Positions 1,547 through 60,907 of a stretch of DNA of 64,000 nucleotides are shown here, piece after piece. Each line of letters starts with the position of its first letter. The stretch's first letter is position 1. The notes under the pieces are model-generated. The model saw nothing but the letters and a program-made list of their open reading frames with translations. It had not been told where the DNA came from and did no database searches. Position numbers and translations under genes: made by a program. The DNA lies in contig CAITNM010000026.1 of assembly GCA_903893805.1 (NCBI GenBank), forward strand, positions 69,664-133,663. The letters are read 5' to 3'. The stretch is from an uncultured Alphaproteobacteria bacterium. Lineage in GTDB: Bacteria > Pseudomonadota > Alphaproteobacteria > Paracaedibacterales > CAITNM01.

Positions 1547-1563
1547 ATGCGGATTCCATAAAA

Positions 1564-3104: not shown

Positions 3105-3137
3105 TCTTGCTGTAAAATAAGCAATAGAATAAAAGAA

Positions 3138-3422: not shown

Positions 3423-3461
3423 AAATTTATACAAAACTATTCTTAAAAATGGAGTATAGAA

Positions 3462-11752: not shown

Positions 11753-11932
11753 CTATCCTAGTTCAATCATTTTTGCAAAAGAAAGCAGCTCAGCTAAACA
11801 TGTAAAGCCAGATGAATAAGGTCCTTTATTTAATACAACATCATCAGCAATCACACCTAGGTCATTCAGGTAAGAAACCGCTAAAACTAATTGAAGAGTG
11901 ACTGGAAAGAAGTGGCCGCTAGCACGGATCAA
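11753..11932 (-). other. Unlisted 59-codon ORF (TTG start), possibly the frameshifted 3' part of 11919..12422
   Basis: Hand translation gives (L)IRASGHFFPVTLQLVLAVSYLNDLGVIADDVVLNKGPYSSGFTCLAELLSFAKMIELG*. It overlaps the end of the 167-aa ORF by 14 nt in another frame and runs to the terminator. Confidence 0.3.
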
Positions 11933-19729: not shown

Positions 19730-19870
19730 CCTGACGAAAAGAATTTTTTAACACTGCTCTTGGGTAGTGCGGAGAATCTTTGTCTTTTTAACAATTTTAA
19801 AAAACAGCATTTGACTGTTCAGGGCGGCTATTTGCCTTGTTTTAATCAATTTTTTAAAAGGAGAATTATA

Positions 19871-20939
19871 ATGTCTAAAATATTAACGTTGCTAATTCTG
19901 GTGATTTTGGCAGTTCCTATTATGGGCGCTACTACCACGGTAGAGGAATTAGATGTTCCTGCTATATACAAACGAACTTTACCTAAACTGGAGATTGATG
20001 GGCCTGATCTCCCCCTTGTAAGAGCCAACAATATCGTAGACTATTTACAGCTTTTAGGGGGCGGAGGTCCATTAAATAGCGAGGCCCGTGGTGCTTACAT
20101 AGATTACATACTGGGTAAGCTAAGTGCTGATGAACCCATTCAATTTGTGATTTTAGGGTTCCCGTGTAAATCAACCAATGTGGGGAAAAAGGTTTTAAGT
20201 CAGAGGTTTGATATGGGGGATTACCTTGGGCTTATAAGGCTTGAGCACATAGCAGAACAAATTCAAGAGTTTGTTGGAGTACCTTGTGAAGTCCACATTA
20301 TTAACAAAGAGCCATACATACCTGAAATGTTCGCAGAGATTGAAAGAGAGTTAGACACGAGACTGCTTAATTCTGGTGAATACGAGGTAGCCTTTTTAAG
20401 ATTGCGGGGAACCTGCCCGCATTTGCATTGTGGCGCAGATTTGACCAGAGACTATTTGGCGCAAAAAGCGATGGAAGTTTATCATTCAGAAGCGGCAAAA
20501 GTGCAAATTGTAGCTGCTGCAGAAGGGTCAAAACGGTTTTTTTGCCGACGAAATAGATTACCCCATTGTTAATACTGCGCTAAATGGAAAAGGGATAGTA
20601 AGCAAAGCAGCACTTATGAAAGAACGAAAAAGATTAGGACTGTTAATGTCAGGAGTGTACCAACTAGGGGTAACAGTCTTTAGAGAGGTAGTTAGAGCCC
20701 ATGGATTGTATGGTAGCATGTTACGCCTTTCTGTTCATGGAGACGAAACAAAAGTTGGTATAAATTTTGCTAGTAAGCCTGGTATAGATTGTGTGAGCAC
20801 CTGCGTGCCATGGCACGCGGCTTTGCTATGCGCCAGATCTGGTGATGATGTTTCGTTTGATCTTGTGCATGGTGTTCCAGCAGGAGCCATAGTGACTATG
20901 TCGGTAGCTGGTGTTCCACTACCTTATATTTTGAAATAA
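19871..20939 (+). pseudogene. PvcA/Dit1-family paralog 2, interrupted by a +1 frameshift in a T7 run (track ORFs 19760..20572 and 20616..20939)
   Basis: ATG 19871 has SD AAGGAG. FVILGFPCKSTNVGKKVLSQRFDMGD. Removing one T from 20537-20543 joins ...KRFF to ADEIDYPIVNTALNGKGIVSKAALMKERKRLG... in frame. Confidence 0.7.
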
Positions 20940-23605: not shown

Positions 23606-24784
23606 CTACTCTTTCATTAATTGAACGCGATAGCGAAGTACAACCTCAGTTTTTGGTGCCACTTTGACTGGCCAATATACGCTTTGAGTGCTTTCTTGCT
23701 TATGCGCCATACTTTCGCGAATCACTTTACCACGATTTTCGCCAAAAGGAAGCATAACTTTAATGTTTGCTTCCTTTTCGCCAAAGTTGCGAATGGTTAA
23801 TCTATAGGCCGCTTCTATAACTTTTTCAGTAAGCAAGGTCTTAAATTCTGTTTGTTCTAAGTTTCCTTGAATTTGTGTGAGAGGGGAATCTTGACTGGAC
23901 TTAAGTTGAGAGAGCAAAAGCGGTGGAATAGCTAATTGTATATCATCGCCAGATTTCGTGGCTAGCAGGGCGCTTGTGCCTAAAAATCTTAATGTATTGC
24001 TATTGTCACGAATATATATAGTAATGTCACCACTTGCTAAGTCTTGTGCAAGTTTTTCATCAAGTTTGAAGTGTAGCCAAATTTGTAAGGGAATCTGTCT
24101 CTCAACTCCTTGAAGATCATTGAGGTTTTCTTTTCCAACATCTAGTCGATAGTCTTGCCCAGCTTTTTGTTTACGAAACTCTACCCAAGGAATTCGCATG
24201 ACACTACCTTTATGGATGAATTTAGGCGTATCAATAACATATTCATGAAAAGTTTGATTTTTTGCTAAGTCATCGGTTTGTGCGTCAACTAAACGAAGTT
24301 GGATATTTTCAAAACTTGTACCTGATTGATTGTCTATGCTGACAAAGCTGTTAAAATTTTGGATTTCGTCAAACTGTTCGTTCACTTCAACAACATAATG
24401 CATATGCCAACCAATACCAGAAAAAGTATAAGTAATTTCTCCTTGAAAGGGGTGTTTAGAGTTTAAAATCAAATCAACAGCTGTTAATACATCTTTATCT
24501 TTAGAAATAATGTATTCAGGATTTGCGCTGCCTTCTTGACGAAATAAAACTGATTGAGAATCGATAGATCCCGGAACTGTAAACGAGTATTCTTTTTCTC
24601 CGCTAAATTTAATTGGCAAGGTGGCGACACAGCGATCTTTGTAAATAACCAGATTTCCAGTTTTTGTTTCTTTTTTTAATTCTGCATGCTCTTTTTTCTG
24701 GTCAGGTGCTTTTGCGGCCTTCTCTTCTGAATGTCCCGATTGAGAGATCAACATTAAGCACATAATTACAAAAAATATTTTCAT
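23606..24784 (-). CDS. Exported hypothetical protein, DUF4139-like
   Basis: Signal peptide. ITYTFSGIGWHMHYVV...SIDNQSGTSFENIQLRLVDAQ resembles the DUF4139 pattern. ATGA overlap with the murE stop. Confidence 0.5.
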   Translation of the reverse strand: MKIFFVIMCLMLISQSGHSEEKAAKAPDQKKEHAELKKETKTGNLVIYKDRCVATLPIKFSGEKEYSFTVPGSIDSQSVLFRQEGSANPEYIISKDKDVLTAVDLILNSKHPFQGEITYTFSGIGWHMHYVVEVNEQFDEIQNFNSFVSIDNQSGTSFENIQLRLVDAQTDDLAKNQTFHEYVIDTPKFIHKGSVMRIPWVEFRKQKAGQDYRLDVGKENLNDLQGVERQIPLQIWLHFKLDEKLAQDLASGDITIYIRDNSNTLRFLGTSALLATKSGDDIQLAIPPLLLSQLKSSQDSPLTQIQGNLEQTEFKTLLTEKVIEAAYRLTIRNFGEKEANIKVMLPFGENRGKVIRESMAHKQESTQSVYWPVKVAPKTEVVLRYRVQLMKE

Positions 24785-26304
24785 AGTTTTAACCTTGTAA
24801 GAAGTTCTTCAGCCTCTTGCTTATCACTAAAGGAGTGGGTTTTATTTCCAACGATCTGACCGGTTTCGTGACCCTTACCTGCTATTAGAAGGGTATCACC
24901 TTTTTCAAGATGTGCAATAGCATATGCAATAGCTTGCCGTCGATCGGCAATCTCTTGTGCTTTTGAGGTACATTCGCTTAATATTTGTTGACGAATGCTG
25001 GCGGGATTTTCTGATCTGGGATTATCATCTGTTACAATGACTTTGTCTGCCAAACTAGAAGCGATTTTCCCCATCAGAGGGCGCTTAATAATATCACGAT
25101 CCCCGCCACAACCAAACACAACCCAAATATTATTTTTGGTATGCTCTCTTAGCGACTTTAAGGCGCGGTCTAAAGCATCAGGAGAGTGTGCATAGTCAAC
25201 GTAAACATGCCCTCCATTTGATGTTTCGCCAATCAATTCCATTCGACCCATAATTGGTTTCAGTTTTGGAATAATAGCTATAATTTCAGTTATTGTTGTG
25301 CCTGATGCGATAAGCATTCCGATTGCACACAAAGTGTTCTCAACTTGAAAAGTTCCACTAAGATTTAGCACAATGTTGTGATAAGTATTACCATTGTACT
25401 CTAAGTCAAAAGCAATATTTGTAGCTTTCACTTTTACTTTTGTGGCCCTTAAATCTGCAGGTGTATTAATTGCGTAAGTAATAATCTGTGTGTTGCGCTG
25501 TGATGCTAATAATTTAAGGCGCTCAAAATAAGGCGAGCTAGCATTCAGAACAGCTATTTTTCCAGGCGACATGATTTCTGTAAAAAGTTTTGTTTTTGCT
25601 TGGAAATAGTCTTCCATAGTTTTGTGATAGTCTAGATGGTCTTGAGTAAGATTTGTAAATCCAGCTACAGTAATTTGACTGCCATGAATACGAAATTGAT
25701 CTAGTCCATGGCTGGATGCTTCGAATATTACATGATTAATGTTGGCTTCTGACAAATTTTTTAATAAAGAAAAAAATGACAAACTATCATAGGTAGTAAG
25801 AGCAGGGAGTGACGGTAAATTACTTAGGTGATTTTTCGTTTCCAAACCAACCGTTCCAAATGATGCAGCAGAATATCCTAATAATTCCCATAACTGACGC
25901 ACTATGCTAACCACAGAACTTTTCCCATTTGTTCCAGTTACTGCCATTAGTACAGCAGGTTGAATTTTAAAAAATGCTTTTGCCAGCAAACTAAGAGCTA
26001 ATCGTGGGTTAGGATGCTCTATGAAGGCTACTTGATCAGCGAATGAGGCGATGACATCTGCAGTCGCTAATACTACACAAGCACCTTTTTGAATTGCCTC
26101 TTTTGTATTGTAAAGAACCTGTGGACAAGGAATTGCAATGAAAAAATCTCCAGGTTGAGTTTTACGAGAATCGGCACACAGATTATTTATTTTAATATTC
26201 TTTAAAACTAGGAATTTGTAGTCTATTTCTAAAGCTGAACACTTTAGTAAATCAACAAGGACAACTTGCTCAAGATGGTCCAATTTACTGGTCTCCAGCC
26301 TCAT
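24781..26304 (-). CDS. murE: UDP-N-acetylmuramoyl-L-alanyl-D-glutamate--2,6-diaminopimelate ligase
   Basis: VTGTNGKSS, and DDNPRSE (the DNPR motif of mDAP-adding MurE). Confidence 0.9.
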   Translation of the reverse strand: MRLETSKLDHLEQVVLVDLLKCSALEIDYKFLVLKNIKINNLCADSRKTQPGDFFIAIPCPQVLYNTKEAIQKGACVVLATADVIASFADQVAFIEHPNPRLALSLLAKAFFKIQPAVLMAVTGTNGKSSVVSIVRQLWELLGYSAASFGTVGLETKNHLSNLPSLPALTTYDSLSFFSLLKNLSEANINHVIFEASSHGLDQFRIHGSQITVAGFTNLTQDHLDYHKTMEDYFQAKTKLFTEIMSPGKIAVLNASSPYFERLKLLASQRNTQIITYAINTPADLRATKVKVKATNIAFDLEYNGNTYHNIVLNLSGTFQVENTLCAIGMLIASGTTITEIIAIIPKLKPIMGRMELIGETSNGGHVYVDYAHSPDALDRALKSLREHTKNNIWVVFGCGGDRDIIKRPLMGKIASSLADKVIVTDDNPRSENPASIRQQILSECTSKAQEIADRRQAIAYAIAHLEKGDTLLIAGKGHETGQIVGNKTHSFSDKQEAEELLTRLKL

Positions 26305-28024
26305 TACTAAGGGATGTTAGCTGCATCAGCTCCCCCATTTGTTGGGCTCCTTCTTCTTTGAAATCAGATTTAACACCAAGTAAAGGAGCTATGCGCTCAA
26401 TAATTTTTCCGGCTGTTGGCGTCACATTCCAACCGGCAGTCGCATATCCATAAGTTCCTTGTGCTGGTTTGGGATCGTCTAACATAACAATCATTATGTA
26501 TTTAGGATCATTTGCCGGGAATCCGCCAATAAAGGAAGTCGTGCGGTGACGATCTGCATCTGACCCGTATCCACCAAATTTTCCTTTATTTTGATAAGCT
26601 GTGCCTGTCTTAGCAAATACTTGATAACCATCAATATTTGCTTTTTTTGCAGTTCCTTCACATACAATCGTACGCATCATTTGACGAATTGCTTTCGATG
26701 TTTTTTCACTAACGCATGGATTTTTTGAAAATGACTGTGTTCTTTCGTGACGATTTGCAGCTGGAACAAATCTTAGTGTCGGTGTTGGTCTGCAACCGTT
26801 ATTAACAATTCCTGCCATTGCACACAGAGAATGTAGCGGAGTTACTGCAATACCATATCCAAAAGAAACTGACATCATTGCTGTTTCACGCCAATCTTTC
26901 GGAGTTAAAGAGTTTCCAAGTTCAGGTATTTCTAAACTTAGCGAAGTTAATACACCAAATTGCCCCATAAAATGCTTTTGCACTTCTGGACCAAATCTTT
27001 GAGAAATTTTAATCGCAGCAATGTTTGATGAATGGACAAGAGCTTCTACAAGTGTAAGAGGACGATTTTGACCCTTAAAATCAGTAATTTTGAAACGGCC
27101 AATGTGAACTGGATTCGTGGCATCAAAAATTGAAGTTAGGGTGGAAGTTCCTGTTTCAAGCGCAATAGCGGCATTAAGAATTTTAAATGTTGACCCTTGT
27201 TCATACACCCCTAATGTATTGCGATTGAATCCACATTCAAGATTTTTCATTTGACGATTAGGGTCATAATCAGGAAGAGAAACCATAGCGATAATCTCTC
27301 CAGTTTTCACGTCCATAACCATAGCATTTGCTGCAACTGCTTTGAATTGCTCTATAGCAGAAACTAATTCATTATGAACTGCGTGTTGCACACGAAGATC
27401 CAAAGATAATTTTAAATCACCTTCTTTTGTAGTCAACATGACATCAAAAGATTGTTCAATGCCACTCACGCCATAACCATCAATATCGCAGCGCCCAATT
27501 ACGTGACAGGCTAAAGTGCCATGAGGATAAACACGTTTTTGATCGGGCTGTAAGTATATTCCAGGAATCCCAAGAGAATGCACAGCTTCTTGCATTTTAG
27601 GAGATGCATGCCGCTCAATCCAAACAAATCCCTGGTTAGATTGCAGTTTTTGCAGCACATTTTCATATCTTAAATGAGGGAAAAGTTTACACAGTTTATC
27701 AGCGGCTTCTTTAGCATCGATAATTACTTTTGGATTAGCATATACAGACGCTGTAACTAGCTGAGTAGCTAAAATTATCCCGTTTCTATCAACAATGTTT
27801 TGGCGAAGTTGACATTCTTGTTGTTGGCAGCCTGTAATGCAAGTGGGGGTTCTAATAACCATCACATCCACTAATCGTATGGTGATTGCTAGAAAAGCTA
27901 CACAGGCTATTGCGGTAGCGCTAAGTGTGCGTTGACGTGCTGTGTGCAATAATTCTTGATGCTGAGAAAATCTCCAGCCACTGAGATGTCGCCACAAGCT
28001 TTTGATCATGACCTTAGGCTGCAT
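26285..28024 (-). CDS. ftsI: Penicillin-binding protein 3 / peptidoglycan D,D-transpeptidase FtsI
   Basis: N-terminal TM segment; STFK, SSN and KTGT motifs; dcw cluster position. Confidence 0.9.
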   Translation of the reverse strand: MQPKVMIKSLWRHLSGWRFSQHQELLHTARQRTLSATAIACVAFLAITIRLVDVMVIRTPTCITGCQQQECQLRQNIVDRNGIILATQLVTASVYANPKVIIDAKEAADKLCKLFPHLRYENVLQKLQSNQGFVWIERHASPKMQEAVHSLGIPGIYLQPDQKRVYPHGTLACHVIGRCDIDGYGVSGIEQSFDVMLTTKEGDLKLSLDLRVQHAVHNELVSAIEQFKAVAANAMVMDVKTGEIIAMVSLPDYDPNRQMKNLECGFNRNTLGVYEQGSTFKILNAAIALETGTSTLTSIFDATNPVHIGRFKITDFKGQNRPLTLVEALVHSSNIAAIKISQRFGPEVQKHFMGQFGVLTSLSLEIPELGNSLTPKDWRETAMMSVSFGYGIAVTPLHSLCAMAGIVNNGCRPTPTLRFVPAANRHERTQSFSKNPCVSEKTSKAIRQMMRTIVCEGTAKKANIDGYQVFAKTGTAYQNKGKFGGYGSDADRHRTTSFIGGFPANDPKYIMIVMLDDPKPAQGTYGYATAGWNVTPTAGKIIERIAPLLGVKSDFKEEGAQQMGELMQLTSLSNEAGDQ

Positions 28025-28409
28025 GATGAACCTCTTGTGATGAAGCTTTTATTGAAGCAGTTTCTTGTTGGGGTGTTACAGCATTGACGGCATCCATTAA
28101 CGCTTCAATAGGGTCTTGTGATACTTTTACTTCTTTCGTTTGCCTAGGCAATTCGCCAATGGTAACAATTTGATTTGGTTTCAGAGCACTAAAGTTAAGG
28201 TGAGTTATAGCGAGCTTTTGCAAACGTGCTGGGTCATTAAGGTGGGTTAATTCAGCCTTTAAAACATGAATAGATTCTTTAGTTTCAGAAATACTTTTGA
28301 CAACCTGCTTATGGCTTTTTTCTAAGGCCATAACCTGGTACTTCACCCGGAATAGCCCAAGACCAACACAAAATGCCATGAGAGCCAAAAAAAACTGAGA
28401 TCTTCGCAT
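28014..28409 (-). CDS. ftsL: Cell division protein FtsL-like
   Basis: Small bitopic protein (TM plus coiled coil) located between rsmH and ftsI. Confidence 0.7.
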   Translation of the reverse strand: MRRSQFFLALMAFCVGLGLFRVKYQVMALEKSHKQVVKSISETKESIHVLKAELTHLNDPARLQKLAITHLNFSALKPNQIVTIGELPRQTKEVKVSQDPIEALMDAVNAVTPQQETASIKASSQEVHHAA

Positions 28410-29308
28410 TAGCGCTTAACCTCTTTAACGAAACCACGCAATTTACCTGAACGACAACGAGGGTTTGACCTAATTTCTCCTAAAGAAGGAGCAATAGCTT
28501 TACGATTGATAGAAGAGTACGTGCACAGTAAATCCTGATGGTTGAATGCCATCTTGCTGTGATTTTTTACCAGACGATCTTCTAATGCGTGAAATGCTAC
28601 CGTGATGAGCCGACCCCCTATCGGCAAAAGCTGATTGCTCAGCTGTAAAGCACGCTCTATCTCTATTAACTCATTATTCACAAAAATACGCAAGCCTTGA
28701 AATGCAAGGGTTGCAGGGTCAAAACCATCTTGACCTGGCACAATTTTTCTGATCAACGTGGCTAGGTCTTGTGTTGTTTCAAATGGCTTCGTTATTCTGG
28801 CTGCAATAATTGCTTTTGCAATTTGTCTAGATCTGGGTTCTTCCCCATATACATATAAAATTTCGGCAATATCTTTTTCTTTGAATGTATTAACAACCTC
28901 TGCGGCGGTGTATGTAGAACCCACCCCCATGCGCATATCAAGGGGGCCATTTTGACGGAAAGAAAATCCTCGATGAGCTTCATCGACCTGATAGCTTGAG
29001 ATACCAAAGTCAAAAACAATGCCATCCATTGATTCTGGACTTAAGTATTTGTCCATTTCACTGAAACAGCTATGAATAATCTCAAAACGATCACCAAATT
29101 CTTGGCTGAAAAATTGTGCACGTTTTACAGCATCACTATCTCGATCGAATGCAATAACCTTAGCAGCACCCTTGTTTAAAATAGCACGCGTGTATCCTCC
29201 ACCACCGAAAGTACCATCCACATAGATTTTTCCAGGGGATGGGTTTAGGGTTTCAATCATTTCCTTGCAAAGTACAGGAATGTGGTTTGGTTGAAGATCA
29301 ATTGCCAT
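28409..29308 (-). CDS. rsmH: 16S rRNA (cytosine1402-N4)-methyltransferase
   Basis: HIPVL...YVDGTFGGGGY...DFGISSYQVD. Confidence 0.9.
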   Translation of the reverse strand: MAIDLQPNHIPVLCKEMIETLNPSPGKIYVDGTFGGGGYTRAILNKGAAKVIAFDRDSDAVKRAQFFSQEFGDRFEIIHSCFSEMDKYLSPESMDGIVFDFGISSYQVDEAHRGFSFRQNGPLDMRMGVGSTYTAAEVVNTFKEKDIAEILYVYGEEPRSRQIAKAIIAARITKPFETTQDLATLIRKIVPGQDGFDPATLAFQGLRIFVNNELIEIERALQLSNQLLPIGGRLITVAFHALEDRLVKNHSKMAFNHQDLLCTYSSINRKAIAPSLGEIRSNPRCRSGKLRGFVKEVKR

Positions 29309-29429: not shown

Positions 29430-31292
29430 ATGCAGCCCAATACCGAAGAAAAACCACCAGTGGATACTCTAACTTCTTTGGAAGTCGGGGTAAATATCAT
29501 TAAAGATGTGGTAAAAACACTGCCTAATAAACCCGGGGTTTATCGGATGCTTAGTGCTTCTTTGAAAGTGCTATACATTGGTAAGGCCAAAGACTTGAAA
29601 AAGCGGGTGGTTTCTTATTCTCATGTGGACAGGCTTCCTAATCGTCTTAAGCGTATGGTTAGTGAGCTTCGGGCAATAGAAATTGTTACGACCTCAACAG
29701 AAGTAGAAGCGTTACTTTTAGAGAGCAACCTGATTAAAAAGTTGCAGCCTAGGTATAATGTTTTACTAAAAGATGATAAGTCTTTTCCTTATGTATTGTT
29801 AACGGCACACGATTATCCTCGAGTCCTTAAACATCGAGGTCCCAAAACGGAAAAAGGGACGTATTTTGGTCCGTTTGCGAATGCAGCTGCAGTTGAAGAA
29901 ACTATCCTAACAATGCAGAGATTATTTCAAATGAGAAACTGTTCGGATAGCTATTTTGAAAACCGAAATCGCCCGTGTTTACAGTATCACATTAAGCGAT
30001 GTACAGCTCCGTGCGTTGGAAAAATATCTGTTGGCGAGTATAAAGAATCAGTGCAGTCTGCTAAGGCATTTTTAACAGGGAAAAGCGATACAGTTCAACG
30101 GCAGTTAGCTGAAAAAATGCACGAGGCTTCAGAAATATTGGATTTTGAAAGAGCAGCTCAGTATCGTGACAGCATTCGTTTGCTTACACAAATTCAGGCG
30201 CGTCAACGGATTAATGTGGCAGGTGTTGACCATGCAGATGTGTTCGCCCTGGCACAGCTGAGTGGACGCACAGTTGTGCAAGGTTTCTTTTTTCGTCACG
30301 GCCATAATTATGGCACAGAAACTTTTGAGATGGCGCATACAGAAGGAGCAACTCAAGAAGAGCAAATGATTGCTTTTCTTAGTCAGTTTTACGTTGAGCA
30401 CGAGCCGCCTGTGATGATTCTTTGCAACCTTCTTCCAGAAGATGTTGAAGTGCTCAGCATGAGCTTGTATCAGCAATATGGGATAAAAGTAACGATAGAG
30501 TGCCCTCAAAACGGAGTAAAACTAGACTTGGTCGAGCATGCGCTTAAGAATGCAAAAGAACATCTTGAAAGGCGTTACAACAGCGAGCTAACTCACCAGA
30601 AGCAATTTGGGTTTTTTCAAGAATTTCTAAACATTCCAAGCATTGATTCCGTTGAGGTTTATGACAACAGTCATTTGCAAGGATCTTCTGCTTATGGAGT
30701 ATTAATTTGCGCAACTCGAAAAGGCTTTGATAAATCTCGTTATCGTAAATTTTCAATTCGAGAAATGAAGAAAGATTTTGGTGGTGATGATATTGCGATG
30801 ATGCGTGAAGTGATGAGTCGACGGCTAAGCCATAAAGACGAATGGCCACTGCCAGATGTATTGCTTATTGATGGTGGACAAGCGCAGGTCAATGCAGTGG
30901 CTGCAATTCTTGAAGAACATAACATTGAATTGCCAGTTGCTGGGATTGCTAAAGGAGCAGTTCGTAATGCGGGTGATGAAACTTTTTATTTTCCTAATCA
31001 GTCATCTCGAAAATTGCCCAAGGACAGCCCTTTGTTATATTTTTTGCAAGTTATTCGCGATGAATCACATCGATTTGCCATAGGTACCCATCGTGCTGGA
31101 CGACAAAAAATTCTTGTGAAGTCTCAGCTTGATGATATTCCAGGTATTGGCGCTAAGCGTAAGAAAATGCTGCTGCAACATTTTGGATCAGCTGCAGGAG
31201 TCGGACGTGCAAGTGTTGACGACTTGATGAATATATCAGGAATTAATCGCTTGGTAGCAGAGAAAATTTACTATTTTTTTCATCAAAGCTGA
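29430..31292 (+). CDS. uvrC: Excinuclease ABC subunit C
   Basis: N-terminal GIY-YIG (GVYRML...LYIGKAKDLKKRV), UVR domain and C-terminal HhH. Confidence 0.95.
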   Translation: MQPNTEEKPPVDTLTSLEVGVNIIKDVVKTLPNKPGVYRMLSASLKVLYIGKAKDLKKRVVSYSHVDRLPNRLKRMVSELRAIEIVTTSTEVEALLLESNLIKKLQPRYNVLLKDDKSFPYVLLTAHDYPRVLKHRGPKTEKGTYFGPFANAAAVEETILTMQRLFQMRNCSDSYFENRNRPCLQYHIKRCTAPCVGKISVGEYKESVQSAKAFLTGKSDTVQRQLAEKMHEASEILDFERAAQYRDSIRLLTQIQARQRINVAGVDHADVFALAQLSGRTVVQGFFFRHGHNYGTETFEMAHTEGATQEEQMIAFLSQFYVEHEPPVMILCNLLPEDVEVLSMSLYQQYGIKVTIECPQNGVKLDLVEHALKNAKEHLERRYNSELTHQKQFGFFQEFLNIPSIDSVEVYDNSHLQGSSAYGVLICATRKGFDKSRYRKFSIREMKKDFGGDDIAMMREVMSRRLSHKDEWPLPDVLLIDGGQAQVNAVAAILEEHNIELPVAGIAKGAVRNAGDETFYFPNQSSRKLPKDSPLLYFLQVIRDESHRFAIGTHRAGRQKILVKSQLDDIPGIGAKRKKMLLQHFGSAAGVGRASVDDLMNISGINRLVAEKIYYFFHQS

Positions 31293-31532
31293 AGACTGAT
31301 TAAATCACTGAACGTAATAATATTACTTTATTTTCATATTATTTATAAAATTAATGCAATATTAAAGTTTTTTGCACCAAAATAAAGATGTAAAAAACAT
31401 TTTAAAATAAAGTGACTTTGAAACTTCTCTTTTTTAGAGAGTTCTTAGCAAAGGAAGTAAATTGACTATCAAGTATTGCTAAGTTGTCATCTTCAAAAGT
31501 GTCGTTAGAGCCCCTTTATTTGAGGAGGCCAC

Positions 31533-33083
31533 ATGATTAGCCCAAATCTTAAATTAATTTTTATCTGCACGCTGTTAGCATCATCAAGAGTTATTTCAAT
31601 GGATAGTGGTATAATGCCACCAGATGACTCATCTACTGCAGTACCAAGAAATGGCAGCATTGCATCAGCAACAGATGACCCTTTTGGAAAATTAATGAGA
31701 ACGTTAAATTTTTTGAGCGTGTCCAAGGGAAAGATTGAGCCATGGAAAAATGCTATTTCTGCATATCAGCAATCATTATCTGATAATGCAGAAATATCAA
31801 CATTAGCAAGCATAAGAGAAAGAATTCTAGGAGAACCTTTAGCAAAGCGTAAAATGGCGATGGTTAACAGAGCGTTCAGTAGTTTGACAAATGACTCTAC
31901 TGCTCCGGTGGCTTTTACTCCCAAGCCTTGTGCTCCTATGCAAATTATTGTATTTCAAACTCCCGCAACGAGAGAAAGACCTGCACTCAGTAGTGAAACA
32001 CGAAAACGTGTTACAGCAAAACCTCCTATACTTTCAAGTGTAATGGAGGGAAGAGATTCCCTTGTTGGTAAAGAAGCTATTCCTGCACAGGCCATTAAGG
32101 CGCATATGATGAATTTTATTGCTGGGCAAGATACTGCTCTTGAAGCGCTTAGCTTTTTAGCACATCGCTTTTTGTGTAATAAATTATTGCTTGATAGGGA
32201 CGGTATGCCTGCTAGTAAACCATCACACTGCATATTAACGGGTCCAACAGGATGTGGAAAAAGTGAGAGTCTTAAGCAATTGGGGCTATTTTTAGGTGTG
32301 CCTATCCTGAATATTAATGCACGAAGCCTAACTGATGAAGGATTTAAAGGGCAAAATTTCAGCGAATGTGTTTCTAGTTTTTGTGAAGAAAACGGAAATC
32401 CAAAATCGGCCATTATTGCAATCGATGAAATTGATAAGCTTGCAGCACGAGGAGATGATGAAGCACGAAATTTTGGTAGAGCAGTTCAACGTGTTCTGTT
32501 ATCGCCTTTAGACGGTAATTCTATTTCATTAAAAAGAAAACGATTTGATCTTACAAATTGGTGGTTTATTGGAACGGGTGCTTTTTCTGATTTGAAAGGT
32601 CGACATGACGTAGAAGGGGAGCGCACATCAACGGCTAGAACTCAACAAGATATTATTAGTGCTGGTTTTGAACCTGAATTCGTTGGTCGTTTTCCTTCAG
32701 TTATTGCCTTCAAAGGTCACACAATTGCGACAATGATGGACGTCATTGAGCGTGATGGATCTCCCTTAAGGAAAATACAAAATGAATTTAAGCGTTTTTA
32801 TGGGGTAAATCTTACTGTTGAAGCGGCAGCCTTACGACGTCTAGCGTCCACAAGCATCGAAATAAATCTTGGAGTAAGAAGCTTAGACACAATTCTAAAC
32901 ATGGCATTGCAACCTTTTTATGGACAAGCAATGGAGCTAATAGCAGTAGAGGGCGAGACATCATTAGTTGCAACTTTAAAGGATATTATGCCTGCTATTG
33001 AGCAATTTAAGAAAGATAATAAAGAAGCTCCTAAAGATCGTTTTGCAGGAATGTCAGAAGAGGTAAGAAGAATGTGGATCTAG
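31533..33083 (+). CDS. Orphan ClpX-like AAA+ ATPase with a novel ~210-aa N-terminal region; no zinc-binding domain, no IGF loop
   Basis: SD GAGGAGG. GPTGCGKS, pore-loop position EGFKGQN (ClpX has AGYVGED), IIAIDEIDKL, FIGTGAF and PEFVGRFP. Hydrophobic N-terminus LKLIFICTLLASS. Confidence 0.75.
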   Translation: MISPNLKLIFICTLLASSRVISMDSGIMPPDDSSTAVPRNGSIASATDDPFGKLMRTLNFLSVSKGKIEPWKNAISAYQQSLSDNAEISTLASIRERILGEPLAKRKMAMVNRAFSSLTNDSTAPVAFTPKPCAPMQIIVFQTPATRERPALSSETRKRVTAKPPILSSVMEGRDSLVGKEAIPAQAIKAHMMNFIAGQDTALEALSFLAHRFLCNKLLLDRDGMPASKPSHCILTGPTGCGKSESLKQLGLFLGVPILNINARSLTDEGFKGQNFSECVSSFCEENGNPKSAIIAIDEIDKLAARGDDEARNFGRAVQRVLLSPLDGNSISLKRKRFDLTNWWFIGTGAFSDLKGRHDVEGERTSTARTQQDIISAGFEPEFVGRFPSVIAFKGHTIATMMDVIERDGSPLRKIQNEFKRFYGVNLTVEAAALRRLASTSIEINLGVRSLDTILNMALQPFYGQAMELIAVEGETSLVATLKDIMPAIEQFKKDNKEAPKDRFAGMSEEVRRMWI

Positions 33084-33095: not shown

Positions 33096-33869
33096 TTACT
33101 TGGCGCTTATTTTTATAAGCGCCATTGTAATTGCAGACACACAAACAATTGCGGGACCTGTAGGCAAATCAAAATAGAGACTTGCGCCAATACCGATTAA
33201 ACTTGAAAAGCAGCTAATCAGTATGGCTGATGTAATCATTTCAGATGGCGTTTTTGAGCGATATCTAGCAGCAGCTGCTGGAATAATTGTAAGTGCTGGC
33301 GCAAATAATGCCCCTAACATTTTCATGACAATTCCCATAATTATTGCATACGAAACAAGCACCATTAGACGTATTATTTTTGATGGAAATCCTTGAACTT
33401 TTGCAAGATCAGCATCAAAGCTTGTCATTAAAATTGCTGACCAATATTTAGCAACAAACCCCCATAAAGCGAGAAGTGCTGCAACAAGAAGAACAATATC
33501 AGACAAGCTGGTACTAAGTAAATCACCAAACAGCAATGTATTTGGGTCAAGGTTTGCTCTTGGAAACAGTGAAATAATTAATATGCTGAAAGAAAGGCAA
33601 CTGTACGAAATAACAGCCAATGATACATCACTTTGTTTTGATGATTTGTGTGCAACAAAATATGCAATGCATAAACATACTAAAATGGCACCAAGGGCAT
33701 ATGGTACTTGTAAAAGTATGCTGAAGCACACACCCAGTAGTGAAGCGTGGGCCAACGTATCTCCAAAGAAAGCAAGTCCATTCCAAAGACCTATGCAGCC
33801 CAAAGGTGCAGTAATTAAACTGGCTAAAAGCGCAGAAACAATTATGAAAATTACGAATGAATCAATCAT
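33096..33869 (-). CDS. znuB: Zinc/manganese ABC transporter permease (ABC-3 family, ZnuB-like)
   Basis: FFGDTLAHASLLGV motif, multi-TM. Start taken at MIDSF (33869); the track start at 33905 is also possible. Confidence 0.8.
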   Translation of the reverse strand: MIDSFVIFIIVSALLASLITAPLGCIGLWNGLAFFGDTLAHASLLGVCFSILLQVPYALGAILVCLCIAYFVAHKSSKQSDVSLAVISYSCLSFSILIISLFPRANLDPNTLLFGDLLSTSLSDIVLLVAALLALWGFVAKYWSAILMTSFDADLAKVQGFPSKIIRLMVLVSYAIIMGIVMKMLGALFAPALTIIPAAAARYRSKTPSEMITSAILISCFSSLIGIGASLYFDLPTGPAIVCVSAITMALIKISAK

Positions 33870-34551
33870 AATGGTGATGATCGTGACGATGTTGATACGG
33901 AGCAAAACCAGGGAATAGTTTTTGCACTTCTTGGACCTGACGTACTTTTTCAGGTGTTCCTTGGCAGCAAACGTGATGATTCAAACAAATCACATGATCT
34001 GTGCAATCAAACACAAAATGCAAATCATGAGAAATAAGCACAATAGCCATATTGTATTCATTTTTCAGTTCTATCAGCTTGCTGTAAAATGCAGACTGCC
34101 CATCGGCATCAATTCCTTGCGTGGGCTCGTCTAAAATTAGGACATCTGGTCTTTTCAAAACAGCGGCATTAAAAAGAACCTTTTGCAATTCCCCGCCCGA
34201 TAAAGCATGAATTGATCTATTCATTAAAAGAGAAATATCAAATGGGTATTCAATTTTTTGTTGCCCGCATAGACTTAGAAATGTCCGCACCGTCATTGGC
34301 ATAAACCGATTCGCATGAAGCTTTTGTGGAACATATCCCATTTGTATATTTTTTTTTCGGTTAATAGAACCAGCAGTGGGTTCAATTAGTCCCAAAATCA
34401 GTCGCACCAGAGTGGTTTTGCCAGCGCCGTTTGGGCCAATTATTGTTGTGACGCTATTTGGCGAAATGCCAAAATTGATATCATGCAATAAAGTTTTGCT
34501 TTGTGATTCTTGTTTAAGAGTATATTCAACGGACTTTAATGAAATTAACAT
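33862..34551 (-). CDS. znuC: Zinc ABC transporter ATP-binding protein ZnuC-like
   Basis: GPNGAGKTT, LSGGELQ, ILDEPTQGID and His-rich tail HRHDHHHYD. Start taken at MLISLK, which forms a TAATG overlap with the mraY stop; the track start is 34608. Confidence 0.8.
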   Translation of the reverse strand: MLISLKSVEYTLKQESQSKTLLHDINFGISPNSVTTIIGPNGAGKTTLVRLILGLIEPTAGSINRKKNIQMGYVPQKLHANRFMPMTVRTFLSLCGQQKIEYPFDISLLMNRSIHALSGGELQKVLFNAAVLKRPDVLILDEPTQGIDADGQSAFYSKLIELKNEYNMAIVLISHDLHFVFDCTDHVICLNHHVCCQGTPEKVRQVQEVQKLFPGFAPYQHRHDHHHYD

Positions 34552-35639
34552 TAGCGAATTTTCAATGTTGCAAGACCAACTAAGGCGAGAATAGATGCAA
34601 TAATCCAAAAACGTATAACGACGGTAGATTCAGCCCATCCCAATTTTTCAAAATGATGATGAATAGGAGCCATTAGAAAAATACGTTTTTTTGTAAGTTT
34701 GTAGTATACAACTTGCAAAATGACAGACACAGCTTCTAACACAAACAAACCACCAATAATACACAATACAAATTCATGTTTTGTGATCAACGCAATGGTG
34801 CCTAATGCGCCTCCAGCAGCAAGTGATCCCGTATCTCCCATAAATACTTTTGCAGGAGGCGCGTTAAACCATAAAAAGCCCAATCCTGCACCAATAAGAC
34901 TGCCTAAAAAGATGCATACTTCTCCGACATTTGCCACATAATGTAGTTGTAGATAAGGCGCAAAAATGTGGTTGCCCACAAGGTAAGCAATAATTGTAAA
35001 ACACACAGAACATATCATCACCGGGACAATCGCTAGCCCATCAAGCCCATCGGTTAAGTTAACAGCATTTGATGATCCTACAATCACAAGCACAGCCCAC
35101 GGATAAAAAAACCAACTTAAGTTAACAATGAAATCTTTGAAAAAAGGAAATGTTAAGCTATGCGAAAGGCTTGCATCTGTATAATGAGCTGATGCATATG
35201 CAACAATTATTGCGAGTGTGGTCTGTCCAAGCAATTTTGTTTTTCCCGAAATTCCATGATGGGAATTTTTAGTGAGTTTTTTGTAATCATCCATGGCACC
35301 TAGAGCTCCAAATCCAAGAGTAACAAGTAGCACTATCCATAAAAATGCATTTGCCAAATCTCCCCATACCAAAGTACTTATAGAAACAGCGAGTAAAATC
35401 AAACACCCTCCCATAGTAGGGGTTCCTTTTTTTGTCACAAGATGAGATTCAGGACCATCGCTACGAATAGGCTGGCCTTGTTTTTGCTTTGACTTAAGCC
35501 AGGCAATAATAGGTTTCCCCAAACAAAAGCTAATTATTAAAGCGGTTAAAATGGCTCCCATAGTGCGAAAAGTAATATATCGCAGAAGGTTGAAAACCTT
35601 AAAATCACCAAAAATATGAAGACAGAAAAATTGTAACAT
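34551..35639 (-). CDS. mraY: Phospho-N-acetylmuramoyl-pentapeptide transferase
   Basis: [18 protein letters not shown] and [12 protein letters not shown]-like motifs; 10-TM profile. Confidence 0.95.
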
Positions 35640-35643
35640 TGCG

Positions 35644-36579
35644 CTAACTATGTCGGTTGGTTGTTATTGAGTGATTGAAAGAAAGGCTTTTATACTCTTT
35701 GGACAGAAAACCGCGTTGCCATTCAATTCCAGAAATTCGGTCTGCAGGCATCTGTGAGTTTTTACCATGCACAATAGTTGCTTCGTTAGGAAAAAATGTT
35801 AATACAAAGTTCGCATACATTTCATATTCTGAAAAGACCTGACTAGAAATTTCAGGGGTATTTAAAACATCCTGCCATGGTTTGTCATGCAATTTTTCTA
35901 GCCTATTTTTCATGGCTTTGAGCTTTGATTTGTCAAAAAACATATGCTGACTATTGAAATCAAGATTGTAATATTTTTCAAGTTTTAATACTGATTCGAC
36001 CATAAGCTTGCAGTCTAACACATACTTATTACAGACATTGAAAACAGCTTTATCTTCCCGAAGAAATATTTGAGTTTGCAACAAAACTGTATCGGCATCA
36101 ATCACTAGGTAATAATCTGAGGTAATGACGGTATCTGCGTTCAGCTTAATGAGCTGTTGTTTTAAATATCCTGACAAATCGTTGCTTCGAGCAAGTTGGG
36201 GAATAACTTTTGTTTCTTCCACAAACTCGCAGCCTTTTTCTAAGGCTACATTCCTTAACTTTTCAGACTCTGGGCAAATTAAATAAATTTTATTGATAGG
36301 GTGCATTATCAACCCTTTCGCAGCATCAATTGCATGACGAATTGTTGGTAAATCTTTTTCAATGCACAAAAAAACAACGTCAATTTTAGTCTGACATAAC
36401 GGAACATGGTTGTTAGAATAGCGGTCTCTTTTAAAAGACAAAAGCTTCATGAAAAGCTTTCTTTTGTAAATATGCCACTTTGTATCTTCAATCGGTAACT
36501 CTTCAGGTGTTGTTATAAGCCAAACACTTAAAATTGTTATGGAAATCAGCAGTGATAGTAAAGCCAAAAAGCGCTTCAT
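35644..36579 (-). CDS. Membrane-anchored GT-A-like putative glycosyltransferase (DUF6492-like), paralog B
   Basis: N-terminal TM segment; [11 protein letters not shown]...; [14 protein letters not shown]...[10 protein letters not shown] (DxD). Full-length paralog of 36583..37524. Confidence 0.5.
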
Positions 36580-36582
36580 ATA

Positions 36583-37524
36583 TTATTGCCCTGTCATGCC
36601 TTCAATTGTTAAAAAGCTATGCATCGTCATGCTTTTGTATTTGCAGCTTAAATATTCTCGTGCATAACTAATGCTGGAAAGTCCATTGCGTGGAAAAAGC
36701 ACGTTACTTCCTAAAACAAGCTCAATTTCATTTTCAAAGCATTGCGCCACAAAGTTGCCATACAGTTCATATTCGGAAAAGCCACCCTCAGGAATGTTCA
36801 AGGTATCAAGTGCATCTTGCCATGGAAGTCCATGCAGATTTTGCAAATGTTGTTTTAAAGCTTTTAATTTTGTTTTGCAAATCAGCATATGGTGGCTAGT
36901 GAAATCAACATTATGAAATTTATCAAACCCCAAGGCAATTTTCACCATTTGTTTTCGATCAAGCCAATAATCATGCAAAATATTCAGAACTTCTTTATTT
37001 TCTGTTACAAAAATCTGAGGGCGAATCAAAATTGTGTCTGCGTCAATAATAAGGAAATGTTCGCATGTCCCAACTTTATCAGCATTAAGCTTTAAATATT
37101 GCTGTTTAATCCATCCCTTTCGATTGGTATTATTCGAAAATGTAGGCAGTACCGTATCTTCTAAAACAAATACACAATTCTTTTCTTGAGCAATTTTGCG
37201 CAATATTATAGATTCTGGTGCGATCAGATAAATATTGGAAATAGGCTGCAAAATATTGCCACGCACCGAATCAATAGTTAGTACTAAAGTTTCAGCATCT
37301 TTTTCAATAACAGGAATGACCACGTCAATTGGCATCTTGCTTAAGGGGACATGCAAGTTACAAAAAGGGTCACGTTTTATTTTTAAATATGCGTAATGAA
37401 TGTAGCGTAAAAATTGTTGATATTTTGAGTCTTGTTTAGGTAAATAAGTAGGATGACACGCGTAATACACAAAGCACATTGCGCAAATTAGGATTGCAAA
37501 AGCACATTGAGTAATTCTTTTCAT
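36583..37524 (-). CDS. Membrane-anchored GT-A-like putative glycosyltransferase (DUF6492-like), paralog A
   Basis: N-terminal TM segment; IDVVIPVIEKD...; KGWIKQQYLKLNAD...HFLIIDADTI (DxD). Confidence 0.5.
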   Translation of the reverse strand: MKRITQCAFAILICAMCFVYYACHPTYLPKQDSKYQQFLRYIHYAYLKIKRDPFCNLHVPLSKMPIDVVIPVIEKDAETLVLTIDSVRGNILQPISNIYLIAPESIILRKIAQEKNCVFVLEDTVLPTFSNNTNRKGWIKQQYLKLNADKVGTCEHFLIIDADTILIRPQIFVTENKEVLNILHDYWLDRKQMVKIALGFDKFHNVDFTSHHMLICKTKLKALKQHLQNLHGLPWQDALDTLNIPEGGFSEYELYGNFVAQCFENEIELVLGSNVLFPRNGLSSISYAREYLSCKYKSMTMHSFLTIEGMTGQ

Positions 37525-43520: not shown

Positions 43521-43647
43521 TTAACTGACATTTATATCTTCATCGTATTTTTTAAAGATTCTCAACACAAGACAATTTAAAGATACAGACAAAAAATAGT
43601 TGAATCTTTCCGGAATTTCTTTATATTATATCAATGTTTTAATTTGT

Positions 43648-59374: not shown

Positions 59375-60907
59375 ATGAGTAAGACAGACAATTCAACGCC
59401 AGAGTTTACGGGCTTACGTGCTCGACTTTGGCCAATTCACGCACATGAGCTAAAAAAGTTTATCCCTCTAGGCATTATTATGTTTTGCCTATTGTTTAAC
59501 TACACTATTCTTCGTGATACGAAGGATTCTTTAGTAGTTAACTCAGCGGGCGCGGGAGCCATTACGTTTTTGAAGCTATACTGCGTTACACCGGCAGCGA
59601 TATTATTCGTTGTTTTGTACGCAAAGCTGACAAACGCTATGTCACGTGAAAATGTATTCTACGCTGTAGTTGCGCCATTCATAATATTTTTTGGTATTTT
59701 TGGATTCGTAATTTACCCAAATCTTCACATGCTTCATCCTTCAGTTGAATCAATTCAAGCGCTACATGCTGCTTATCCTAATTTAAGTGGATTCATTGAT
59801 TTGTACGCATACTGGGCATTTTCTTTGTTCTATGTTCTTTCTGAAATTTGGGGAAGTGCAATGATTGCGTTAATGTTCTGGCAATTTGCTAACCATGTTG
59901 TGCGCTTGCGTGAATCAAAGCGTTTCTACGGGTTATTTGCTGTTATTGGAAATGCAGCGTTAGTAGTTTCTGGACCTACAGTTATGTACTGTTCTGAGCA
60001 TATTAAGCACATGGTCCCAGAAGGCGTGGATCCTTGGCAAATAACATTATACCTTCTTATGTCTGCAGTTGTAGTCATGGGCTTGGTTGCTATGTATACA
60101 TACCGTTGGATGCACAAAGAAGTGTTAACTAACAAGTTGTATTTCAACCCAGAAGAAGAAGGCGCGCCAAAGAAGAAGAAAAAAGAAAAGCCAGGTCTTA
60201 TGGAGAGCTTTAAAATTATTGTTCAGTCACCTGAGCTTGGTTTGATTGCCCTTTTGATTATGGCTTACGGCGTAACTATTAACTTGGTTGAAGTTCAATG
60301 GAAAAACCAATTAGGTTTATTTTGTTCTGGAAATAAAGGACTTTTCAACTATTACATGGGCATTTTGTCTACTGCTACTGGTATTTTCACAATTCTATTT
60401 GGACTCTTTGTTGGCTCAAATATTTTGAGAAAAGTAAGCTGGGCAAAAGCTGCGATGATTACTCCTTTGGTAATTTTGGTTGGCGGCGGAGCATTCTTCT
60501 GCTTCATCCTAGCTGAAGGTATGATGGAACCATTTTTGCAGTTCTTTAATACTCATGCGATTGCTGCTGCAATGTTTATTGGTTTAGGTATCGTTGTTGT
60601 GTCAAAGGCTATTAAATACATTTTGTTCGATCCCACAAAGGAAATGGCTTACATTCCATTGGATGATGAGCTAAAGACAAAAGGTAAGGCTGCTGTTGAC
60701 GTTATTGGTGGTCGTGCTGGTAAAGCCGGCGGTGCTTTTGTGCAAAACATGTTATTAATTGCTTTTGCAACTAAAGACGTTGTTTCAATTGCACCAATTG
60801 CATTTGCAGTGTTTGCTGTAGTTGCAGTGGCTTGGTTATATGCTGTTAAAGCACTTTCAGTGAAAGTGACCGCGGCAACTGCCAAGAAAAAACTAGAACA
60901 AGCATAA
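59375..60907 (+). CDS. tlc: ATP/ADP translocase (Tlc/Npt family nucleotide transporter)
   Basis: LWPIHAHELKKFIPLGIIMFCLLFNYTILRDTKDSLVV is the hallmark N-terminus. About 12 TM segments, 510 aa, SD AAGAGGA. Confidence 0.95.
   Translation: MSKTDNSTPEFTGLRARLWPIHAHELKKFIPLGIIMFCLLFNYTILRDTKDSLVVNSAGAGAITFLKLYCVTPAAILFVVLYAKLTNAMSRENVFYAVVAPFIIFFGIFGFVIYPNLHMLHPSVESIQALHAAYPNLSGFIDLYAYWAFSLFYVLSEIWGSAMIALMFWQFANHVVRLRESKRFYGLFAVIGNAALVVSGPTVMYCSEHIKHMVPEGVDPWQITLYLLMSAVVVMGLVAMYTYRWMHKEVLTNKLYFNPEEEGAPKKKKKEKPGLMESFKIIVQSPELGLIALLIMAYGVTINLVEVQWKNQLGLFCSGNKGLFNYYMGILSTATGIFTILFGLFVGSNILRKVSWAKAAMITPLVILVGGGAFFCFILAEGMMEPFLQFFNTHAIAAAMFIGLGIVVVSKAIKYILFDPTKEMAYIPLDDELKTKGKAAVDVIGGRAGKAGGAFVQNMLLIAFATKDVVSIAPIAFAVFAVVAVAWLYAVKALSVKVTAATAKKKLEQA

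Follow-up and report, generated by a model that had tools for sequence, protein, structure and literature searches.

A ClpX-type AAA+ protein of Holosporales endosymbionts with a predicted Sec signal peptide, a conserved HbYX-like tail and a structured leader RNA

The stretch of DNA analyzed here (64,000 nt; positions 69,664 to 133,663 of contig CAITNM010000026.1, assembly GCA_903893805.1, from an uncultured alphaproteobacterium) is referred to as the window, and all coordinates are those of the window unless another locus is named. On its plus strand it carries a gene (31533..33083, ATG start) for a 516-residue AAA+ unfoldase of the ClpX/HslU clade, which belongs to a family specific to Paracaedibacteraceae. 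The protein is interpreted here as an exported, ClpP-independent unfoldase that would be driven by host ATP and would probably act on host proteins, a reading that we consider about evenly balanced between right and wrong. It joins a ClpX-like motor to an N-terminal signal sequence, an N-domain of its own and a conserved C-terminal tripeptide, and its synthesis appears to be controlled by a regulatory region that is better conserved than much of the coding sequence.

Pfam, NCBIfam, a sequence search of the PDB and a structural search agreed on a ClpX-like AAA+ core, and every motif quoted in the original prediction was found where it had been placed: GPTGCGKS (Walker A, residues 237–244), SLTDEGFKGQNF in the pore-1 region (residues 265–276), IIAIDEIDKL (Walker B, residues 294–303), FIGTGAF (residues 345–351), PEFVGRFP (the arginine-finger motif, residues 381–388) and GVRSL (sensor-2, residues 447–451). 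Pfam returned generic AAA domains only (AAA_2, E 2e-14), and phmmer against the PDB returned ClpX (E 3e-18), then HslU (E 2e-14). An AlphaFold model was built on 26 family sequences (mean predicted local distance difference test score, pLDDT, 75, and at least 90 over much of the core). When it was submitted to Foldseek, the top 50 matches were all ClpX chains (E down to 9e-20; target-normalised template modelling score 0.62–0.82). Identity to ClpX is 22–28%. The equivalog thresholds of NCBIfam were not reached, neither for ClpX (NF003745/TIGR00382; 88.3 bits where 359 are required, and 68 where 370.75 are) nor for HslU (TIGR00390; 62.8 bits against 362.45). On this evidence, the protein would be a ClpX-type threading motor in mechanism while standing outside the ClpX and HslU families as defined.

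The core consists of a large AAA+ subdomain (residues 186–395; 32088..32717), which holds Walker A, the pore-1 motif (residues 270–273), Walker B, the sensor-1 strand (residues 342–351) and the arginine finger, and a small (lid) subdomain (residues 396–470; 32718..32942) with sensor-2 and a weak Pfam match to ClpB_D2-small. Homology to ClpX had been drawn from residue 215 to residue 516; the core is indeed homologous, but the homologous span begins at ∼180–186 and ends at ∼470, residues 471–516 being specific to the family. The pairing of FIGTGAF with GIGFGAT of ClpX proposed by phmmer was discarded as an artefact: in the model, residues 342–349 form the central β-strand, and the multiple alignment pairs the motif with FICGGAF of ClpX. 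What the protein shares with ClpX is thus the single AAA+ module, Walker A and B, the sensor-1 strand, PEFxGR, the GxRxL sensor-2, the aromatic position of pore-1 and the lack of an HslU-type insertion; what it adds are an N-domain of four helices behind a predicted signal peptide, a linker rich in proline and, at the C-terminus, an extension with the ending [ML][YW]x.

The departures from ClpX within and ahead of the core were read from an alignment of five family members with ClpX-type matches, three of which carry the zinc finger. The C4 zinc domain (PF06689) is gone, as had been claimed, with no Pfam match at E ≤ 1 and an N-terminus that cannot be aligned with zinc-finger ClpX. So is the IGF loop, by a 21-residue deletion at the IGF/LGF position. 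The residual loop there (residues 355–373) is polar (KGRHDVEGERTSTARTQQD), yet strongly conserved in the family, and a cryptic IGF-like tripeptide, which the original prediction had allowed for, is not contained in it. A further deletion of 11 residues, which had escaped that prediction, removes the RKH loop of ClpX, so that none of the three ClpX features that serve substrate recognition and coupling to ClpP (zinc domain, RKH loop and IGF loop) is present. The pore-1 motif reads GFKG and not GYVG, again as first noted, and is G[FY]KG family-wide. No HslU I-domain was found in the alignment, as there is no insertion between residues 244 and 294.

K243, D298/E299, R386 and R449 are invariant in 26 family members, and the ratio of nonsynonymous to synonymous substitution rates (dN/dS) of the AAA+ core is ∼0.08 in comparison with orthologues. 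Because catalytic residues are invariant and the core is under such constraint, the protein is regarded as a working ATPase and not as a relic, and very probably as an active ClpX-clade motor that is unable to use ClpP. HslU (ClpY) resembles it in clade, in the absence of an IGF loop and in how few residues separate sensor-1 from the arginine finger; it differs in having the I-domain and an hslV neighbor and in lacking a signal peptide. Consistent with the claim that the gene is free-standing and has no protease gene nearby, clpP, lon and hslV had no Pfam match among the open reading frames (ORFs) of at least 150 codons in the whole 64-kb window. Nor did tblastn with ClpP and HslV probes give a match in the window or in loci L001–L023, a negative that weighs less than a match would. 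Likewise, no hslV was detected beside any of ∼25 family copies by tblastn with an E. coli HslV probe. Phylogenomic marker lists for Paracaedibacter contain clpP and hslV but do not specify which of the markers were recovered.

The original prediction had the protein start with a region unrelated to ClpX and headed by a signal-like hydrophobic segment, and this arrangement recurs in all copies, distant paralogues included. Residues 1–23 (MISPNLKLIFICTLLASSRVISM; 31533..31601) constitute a predicted Sec signal peptide, present in every complete family member. The prediction rests on inspection and on elementary statistics for 19 copies, other proteins encoded in the window serving as controls. 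In all complete copies, K or R is followed by ∼11 uncharged hydrophobic residues, a polar stretch mostly ending in A/S-x and an acidic segment; upon inspection, the basic n-region, the short hydrophobic core and the small residues at positions −1 and −3 fitted a Sec type I signal. The uncharged stretch had a median length of 11 residues, and the median 19-residue hydropathy was 1.48, which is like that of SurA and the CtpA-like peptidase of the window, whereas the anchors of FtsI, PpiD and the DUF6492 proteins reached 2.1–2.6 with 16–26 uncharged residues. The 19 copies together have 32 K/R ahead of the core and 16 behind it, whereas D/E number 13 ahead of it and 67 within the 15 residues behind; this charge pattern points to an N-terminus inside and a body outside. 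The signal region has low pLDDT in the model. A twin-arginine translocation signal was rejected for want of the twin arginine, and a lipoprotein signal for want of an [ASG]-C lipobox, the cysteine not being conserved.

Taken at face value, these N-terminal features make export of the AAA+ protein probable, and a signal of the Sec type argues against one-step delivery as a type IV or type VI effector. Two roles had been put forward, that of a membrane-tethered stand-alone unfoldase and that of a secreted effector; export is the one favored, whereas a membrane tether with a cytoplasmic ATPase fits poorly with a core of ∼11 residues that is basic before and acidic after. The mature protein would begin with an acidic segment (31602..31676; pLDDT < 50), in which the motif hydrophobic-P-P-x-D-D-S is conserved.

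The segment that follows is the N-domain (residues 49–120; 31677..31892), a family-specific four-helix bundle whose first hairpin resembles a tetratricopeptide repeat (TPR). Modeled in isolation by AlphaFold it reached a pLDDT of 83.5, and Foldseek of this model against the PDB returned nothing significant (best E 0.59). A profile of the N-domain, run against 1.84 billion representative proteins, retrieved only family members and proteins of the TPR_12 type, the latter through a stretch of ∼30 residues. The likeness to TPR is weak (hhalign probability against a TPR protein 10.9%; no Pfam TPR match). In one family member (P0009, 661 residues; locus L029, 1476–3461), the four-helix N-domain is duplicated in tandem. 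A proline-rich linker predicted to be disordered (residues 121–185; 31893..32087; pLDDT 27–33; 14% proline) connects the N-domain to the motor.

At its other end, the protein carries a family-specific extension with a DNKE motif (residues 471–513; 32943..33071) and, as its last three residues, M-W-I-COOH (33072..33080). The corresponding family pattern, [ML]-[YWF]-x, is HbYX-like, had not been noted in the original prediction and is seen in all but one of 35 distinct complete tails, the aromatic residue being Tyr in 28 of the 34, Trp in five and Phe in one. The final residue varies (M, I, L, S or V, and T among the locus-encoded copies), and the residues just upstream of the tripeptide fall into three unrelated classes (...EEVRRMWI, ...ESIRHMYM and ...PPFGMYI). 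As the tripeptide is kept across these unrelated contexts, selection acts on the tripeptide itself. The tail pattern is absent from the ClpX-type matches outside the family (P0048–P0063). The extension as a whole (32943–33080, ending …GMSEEVRRMWI) is a mosaic: it is 72% identical to that of locus L007 and 59% to that of L002, as opposed to 57% and 80% for the whole protein, which suggests recombination between tail types.

Such a signature defines HbYX motifs, which dock the PAN, Rpt, Cdc48 and AMA ATPases into pockets of the α-ring of the 20S proteasome. A terminal tripeptide that stays conserved while the residues before it vary ([LVIMGAPFYW][FY]x>) has served as the criterion by which new proteasomal ATPases were predicted and then validated (Forouzan et al., PMC3493965). 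The present protein has in common with PAN, Rpt2/3/5, archaeal Cdc48/AMA and Mpa that they are hexameric unfoldases with a substrate-recognising N-domain and a conserved hydrophobic-aromatic-x end; it differs from the HbYX proteasomal ATPases in AAA clade and in N-domain fold. HslU from E. coli ends in ...RFIL, and the tail described here differs from it. The C-terminal tail of HslU, too, docks on its peptidase and activates it (PMC11475706). That the tail might be a PDZ ligand was also entertained, a reading weakened by the variability of the last residue, which includes S and T (MYS, LWS and MYT).

A search of 5.8 billion proteins yielded 47 clusters (at 90% identity) with E < 1e-76 and 38–92% identity, separated by a wide gap from the next ClpX-type proteins (E ∼1e-19). 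The genome records concerned are those of Candidatus Finniella inopinata (92% identity), other Finniella, Odyssella and alphaproteobacterial metagenome-assembled genomes (MAGs). Judged by this distribution, the family is uncharacterised and confined to Finniella/Odyssella-like Holosporales. Its bearers belong to Holosporales, Paracaedibacteraceae, which are obligate endosymbionts of protists according to a review, and it is the entry 'Cytoplasm' in a table of this review on which the location of the bacteria in the host cytoplasm is based. Names in the databases are automatic, namely, 'AAA family ATPase', 'ClpX' (for several members, from Integrated Microbial Genomes (IMG) pipelines) and, once, 'HslU'. 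The term 'orphan' that had been applied to the gene holds in that a protease neighbor is lacking, but the gene is part of a conserved family with stable synteny and paralogues.

Among the orthologues compared, synonymous sites are saturated. Whole-gene dN/dS is 0.20–0.25; by segment, it is 0.24 for the N-domain, 0.43–0.53 for the linker, which is the fastest segment, and 0.40 for the C-terminal extension; N-domain, linker and extension thus evolve three to six times faster than the core. Lineages other than the main one have tandem paralogues at other chromosomal sites, with two or three copies per locus (L020, 10001–13376; L023, 10001–15224; L011, 2601–7930), and each of the tandem copies examined has its own signal peptide, a diversified N-domain and an HbYX-like tail. 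In L020, the neighbors include an Exo_endo_phos protein and a NUDIX protein of 1575 residues. In one MAG, a gene for a resistance-nodulation-division (RND) pump comes after a second family copy, and in a second paralogue group (P0024/26/27), a gene for an AcrB-type RND transporter always follows 3′ on the same strand (L010, 11908–14931; L021, 2053–4992; L022, 1953–4943). In L009 (10001–11600), the family gene is split into ORFs of 356 and 115 codons, either because it is a pseudogene with a frameshift or because the assembly is wrong there. In L026 (902–8551), the genes for TssK/VasE, TssL/DotU, TssM/IcmF and TssA/ImpA_N immediately precede the family gene, with UPF0102 and BON-domain genes next in the row, an arrangement found at this locus only and not conserved elsewhere. 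A role as substitute for ClpV of the type VI system was rejected, as type VI genes are upstream in L026 only and a signal peptide is unfit for recycling a cytoplasmic sheath.

An exported ATPase requires ATP, and the window contains the gene for a predicted TLC-type ATP/ADP translocase (59375..60907, plus strand; PF03219, E 4.5e-173), which had gone unnoticed in the original prediction and marks the organism as an energy parasite. If host ATP is imported across the inner membrane by this translocase, it must pass the outer membrane and ATP should thus occur in the periplasm; with host ATP in the periplasm, the objection commonly raised against export of an AAA+ protein would fall away. Three locations are possible, the host cytoplasm, the cell surface and the periplasm. 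The host side is favored because the recognition parts evolve faster than the motor and because the tandem copies have diversified N-domains, and we put action in or at the host cytoplasm a little short of an even chance. The protein would, in the proposed mechanism, be a hexameric AAA+ unfoldase of ClpX/HslU descent that has lost the zinc adaptor domain and the RKH and IGF loops. A cleavable Sec signal peptide would carry the ATPase past the inner membrane, and it would most probably be released or exposed to the host cytoplasm, where the endosymbiont lives and ATP is available. There, the TPR-like four-helix domain on its flexible proline-rich tether would select substrates or adaptors, the ring would thread the client by its aromatic-lysine pore loops, and the C-terminal hydrophobic-aromatic-x tails would anchor the ring to a partner. 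A double gate would govern expression: a CtrA-type promoter (cell cycle or differentiation) and a leader hiding the ribosome-binding site. That the partner is the host 20S proteasome is unlikely in our estimation; if it were, the HbYX-like tails would sit in the α-ring pockets of the 20S, and the resulting bacterial 'cap' would pick host proteins via the TPR-like N-domain and pass them on to the host protease, for the harvest of amino acids or the removal of defence factors.

Several observations weigh against an exported, host-directed unfoldase and against docking on the proteasome in particular. The gene resides in a stable housekeeping neighborhood (uvrC on one side and znuBC-mraY on the other) and not in an effector island. 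Three cysteines (C215, C233 and C241), of which one belongs to the Walker A loop, vary hardly or not at all, and conserved cysteines are unusual for a protein that crosses the oxidising periplasm. No outer-membrane route is known for a Holosporales protein. To our knowledge, Alphaproteobacteria have no 20S proteasome, and the only one at hand would be that of the host. The tail encoded in the window, MWI, contains Trp and lies outside the published F/Y pattern, with which Y or F in 29 of the 35 family tails agrees. By chance alone, 0.72% of bacterial proteins have an HbYX-like end (PMC11475706). In surveys of Holosporales, the systems listed are Sec, type IV pili (incomplete) and type VI (reduced), and type II is unmentioned (PMC9992710).

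The absence of an outer-membrane route would be of no consequence if the unfoldase resided in the periplasm, where it might run on host ATP and either remodel envelope proteins or feed a periplasmic partner, such as a PDZ protease or an outer-membrane channel into which it would drive Sec-exported proteins, much as in the Plasmodium translocon of exported proteins (PTEX). The signal peptide features and the TLC translocase fit such a resident too, the window encodes an S41/PDZ C-terminal processing peptidase (17419–18501) and SurA-type chaperones, the RND pump gene always follows one paralogue group, and the genomic location is housekeeping-like. We nevertheless consider a periplasmic unfoldase rather unlikely. 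Tails ending in S or T are poor ligands for PDZ domains, which need a hydrophobic last residue; the conserved free cysteines, one in the P-loop, tell against this compartment as well; and fast-evolving recognition parts and tandem paralogues are more like those of proteins interacting with a host. We also know of no periplasmic ATP-dependent unfoldase.

A reducing compartment, which would suit the cysteines, and a trivial supply of ATP are offered by the alternative that the ATPase remains in the cytoplasm, tethered to the inner membrane by an uncleaved N-out anchor and acting either alone (like Msp1 or a protease-less FtsH) or docked by its tail on HslV, for which the HslU-like absence of the IGF loop, the short link from sensor-1 to the arginine finger and the conserved tail could be cited. 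This is clearly unlikely: the charges flanking the hydrophobic core (K/R 32 against 16, D/E 13 against 67) are the reverse of what an N-out/C-in topology needs, a core of ∼11 residues is not long enough to form a transmembrane helix, anchors of the same window measuring 16–26 residues at higher hydropathy, hslV is not beside any of the ∼25 copies, and the protein has neither the I-domain nor a relevant score in the HslU model (63 bits against 362). It is highly improbable that the gene is only a strongly diverged housekeeping ClpX, or a decaying copy, that drifted in a reduced genome, despite the fact that IMG pipelines name several members 'ClpX' and that endosymbiont proteins evolve fast. 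The core is under strong purifying selection, which also acts on N-domain and tail; signal peptide, N-domain, tail and leader are conserved down to 38% identity; the family (E < 1e-76) is set off from ClpX-type proteins (E ∼1e-19); the three features for coupling to ClpP and substrates are cleanly deleted; and there are up to three copies per genome.

The gene is preceded by a Shine-Dalgarno sequence, GAGGAGG (31522–31528), ahead of the ATG. A mis-called N-terminus had been named as a possible weakness of the original prediction; an in-frame stop codon lies three codons 5′ of the ATG, and a longer N-terminus is therefore excluded. The interval that begins at 31293 adjoins the end of uvrC (29430–31292), and the spacer between uvrC and the ATG (31293–31532) is 240 nt long with a GC content of 27%, compared with 38.6% for the whole window. 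The description of this interval as an AT-rich spacer with a strong Shine-Dalgarno sequence was accurate as to composition and ribosome-binding site, but it is not a mere spacer, as it contains a conserved regulatory leader. About 140 nt upstream of the gene are nearly identical among orthologues whose synonymous sites are saturated, and are far more conserved than the sequence coding for N-domain and linker.

The upstream part of this region contains a CtrA-box-like site, TTAATGCAATATTAA (TTAA-N7-TTAA; 31351..31365, plus strand), the 3′ half of which overlaps the likely −35 region. Consensus CtrA sites in Alphaproteobacteria are TTAACCAT and TTAA-N7-TTAAC (PMC4426382). In all 24 copies with sufficient upstream DNA, paralogues included, TTAA-N7-TTAA occurs once only, 133–184 nt before the ATG; TTAACCAT is present in seven of the 24, and the copy in the window, like most, is without the terminal C of the 9-mer. 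Each of the five tandem copies of L023 and L020 and of the three of L011 has a CtrA-box-like site of its own. Over the whole window, the motif is no more frequent than expected (four found, 5.9 expected), so the case for a CtrA site rests on its positional conservation. About 17 nt past the second TTAA follows a putative −10 box, AATAAAGA (31381..31388, plus strand), which reads TATAAT or TATAAA in orthologues and whose position is conserved in the alignment of upstream regions while its flanks diverge. CtrA-activated promoters have their site over the −35 region, and the arrangement of TTAA-N7-TTAA found here would be the same. A simple sigma-70 scan recovered no plus-strand promoter in the spacer, and a strict sigma-54 promoter motif was not found there. 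The gene for sigma-54, rpoN, is itself encoded in the window (50507–51910, plus strand).

From the presumed transcription start onwards, the mRNA would begin with a structured leader of ∼140 nt (31395..31532, plus strand), for which RNAalifold predicted five helices: P1 (31397–31402/31497–31502), P2 (31412–31416/31486–31490), the hairpin P3 (31422–31443), the variable P4 (31445–31482) and P5 (31510–31529). Mean column identity of the leader across 12 orthologues is 80%. The consensus fold has 29 pairs, and 97.7% of cells are paired, compared with 41–52% when the partners were slid. Helix 4, the variable one, contains all three compensatory pairs observed; no variation occurs in helices 1, 2 and 5, which are therefore uninformative in this respect. 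The last helix (31510..31529) is a hairpin predicted to sequester the Shine-Dalgarno sequence, formed by the anti-Shine-Dalgarno GCCCCUU (31510–31516), a loop, and GAGGAGG plus C (31522–31529). It is invariant in orthologues, and the Shine-Dalgarno core is paired in the minimum-free-energy fold of 17 of 19 gene copies. In paralogues, the arms of the hairpin differ and still pair (CCUCU with GGAGG, CCCCUUU with GGAGGGG).

A covariance model of the leader found it only ahead of family genes (∼463 kb searched), and Rfam gave no match at E ≤ 1 on 31200–31620. When metagenomes were scanned with the invariant leader pattern (25 nt with 22 specified bases), six loci only were retrieved, with the same leader scores as the known loci, so that little diversity was gained. 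A leader peptide was discounted as the function of this region: a 17-codon ORF starting with GTG is broken by 1-nt indels in orthologues. We read the upstream region as a CtrA-type promoter followed by a leader that would exert translational control. With translational riboswitches and RNA thermometers, the leader shares the order of a multi-helix 5′ domain and a hairpin pairing with the Shine-Dalgarno sequence; it differs from them in having no Rfam family and in that covariation comes from helix 4 and the paralogues.

In the main lineage, the gene occupies a chromosomal slot that is kept down to 45% identity and runs priA-hda-murE-ftsI-ftsL-rsmH, uvrC, AAA+ gene, znuB-znuC-mraY, two DUF6492 genes and uvrD. 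Between the AAA+ gene and the convergent znuB lies a terminator-like hairpin with a 10-bp stem (33101..33124, plus strand). A functional link to znuBC and mraY was rejected, the genes being convergent and unrelated in function. The slot splits the cell-division and cell-wall cluster into rsmH-ftsL-ftsI-murE (24781–29308) and mraY (34551–35639), with uvrC, the AAA+ gene and znuBC in between. The two tandem DUF6492 paralogues (35644–37524, minus strand; 311 and 313 residues), both with N-terminal membrane anchors, are placed between mraY and uvrD; the pair recurs at this position in most of the syntenic relatives compared and is absent in L029.

Elsewhere in the window, the S41/PDZ periplasmic peptidase gene (17419–18501, plus strand), a common housekeeping gene 13 kb away from the AAA+ gene, encodes a conceivable reader of hydrophobic C-termini. 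Two adjacent DIT1_PvcA genes (isonitrile/dityrosine-type synthase) were found at 18698–20572 (plus strand), the second of which matches only the start of the profile. Several ORFs of 167–334 codons (within 660–4208, 11919–12422, 16517–17422 and 43600–44604) have no Pfam match at all, and one of 993 codons (60950–63931) has a central Pyr_redox_2 match only.

AAA+ proteins with a signal peptide that act outside the cytoplasm of the producing cell have precedents in Plasmodium HSP101, a part of PTEX, and in torsinA of the endoplasmic reticulum lumen, and copies of FtsH in phytoplasmas are predicted to face outward (PMC6981957). These share with the protein described here a signal peptide or outward topology and the use of ATP that comes from a different compartment or from the host. 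They differ in that they belong to unrelated clades (the two-ring ClpB type, torsin, and FtsH with its protease domain) and are made by eukaryotic or wall-less producers, none of them being a ClpX derivative of a Gram-negative bacterium. The architecture and likely location of the AAA+ protein are unprecedented, and the leader RNA is previously undescribed.

The prevailing view is that ATP-dependent unfoldases of bacteria work only in the cytoplasm, as periplasm and exterior are without ATP, a constraint that an energy-parasitic endosymbiont would lift; here, a ClpX motor has seemingly been re-tooled for life beyond the inner membrane. If export is confirmed, this would be the first case known to us of a ClpX-type machine at work outside the cytoplasm of a bacterium. 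It would also represent a new class of host-directed proteins in Holosporales, where effectors are essentially unknown, and would make it possible to ask directly if bacteria are able to cap the proteasome of a eukaryote. The leader, for its part, is a candidate for a new cis-regulatory RNA that, together with a CtrA-type promoter, may control gene expression in a lineage with dimorphic life stages.

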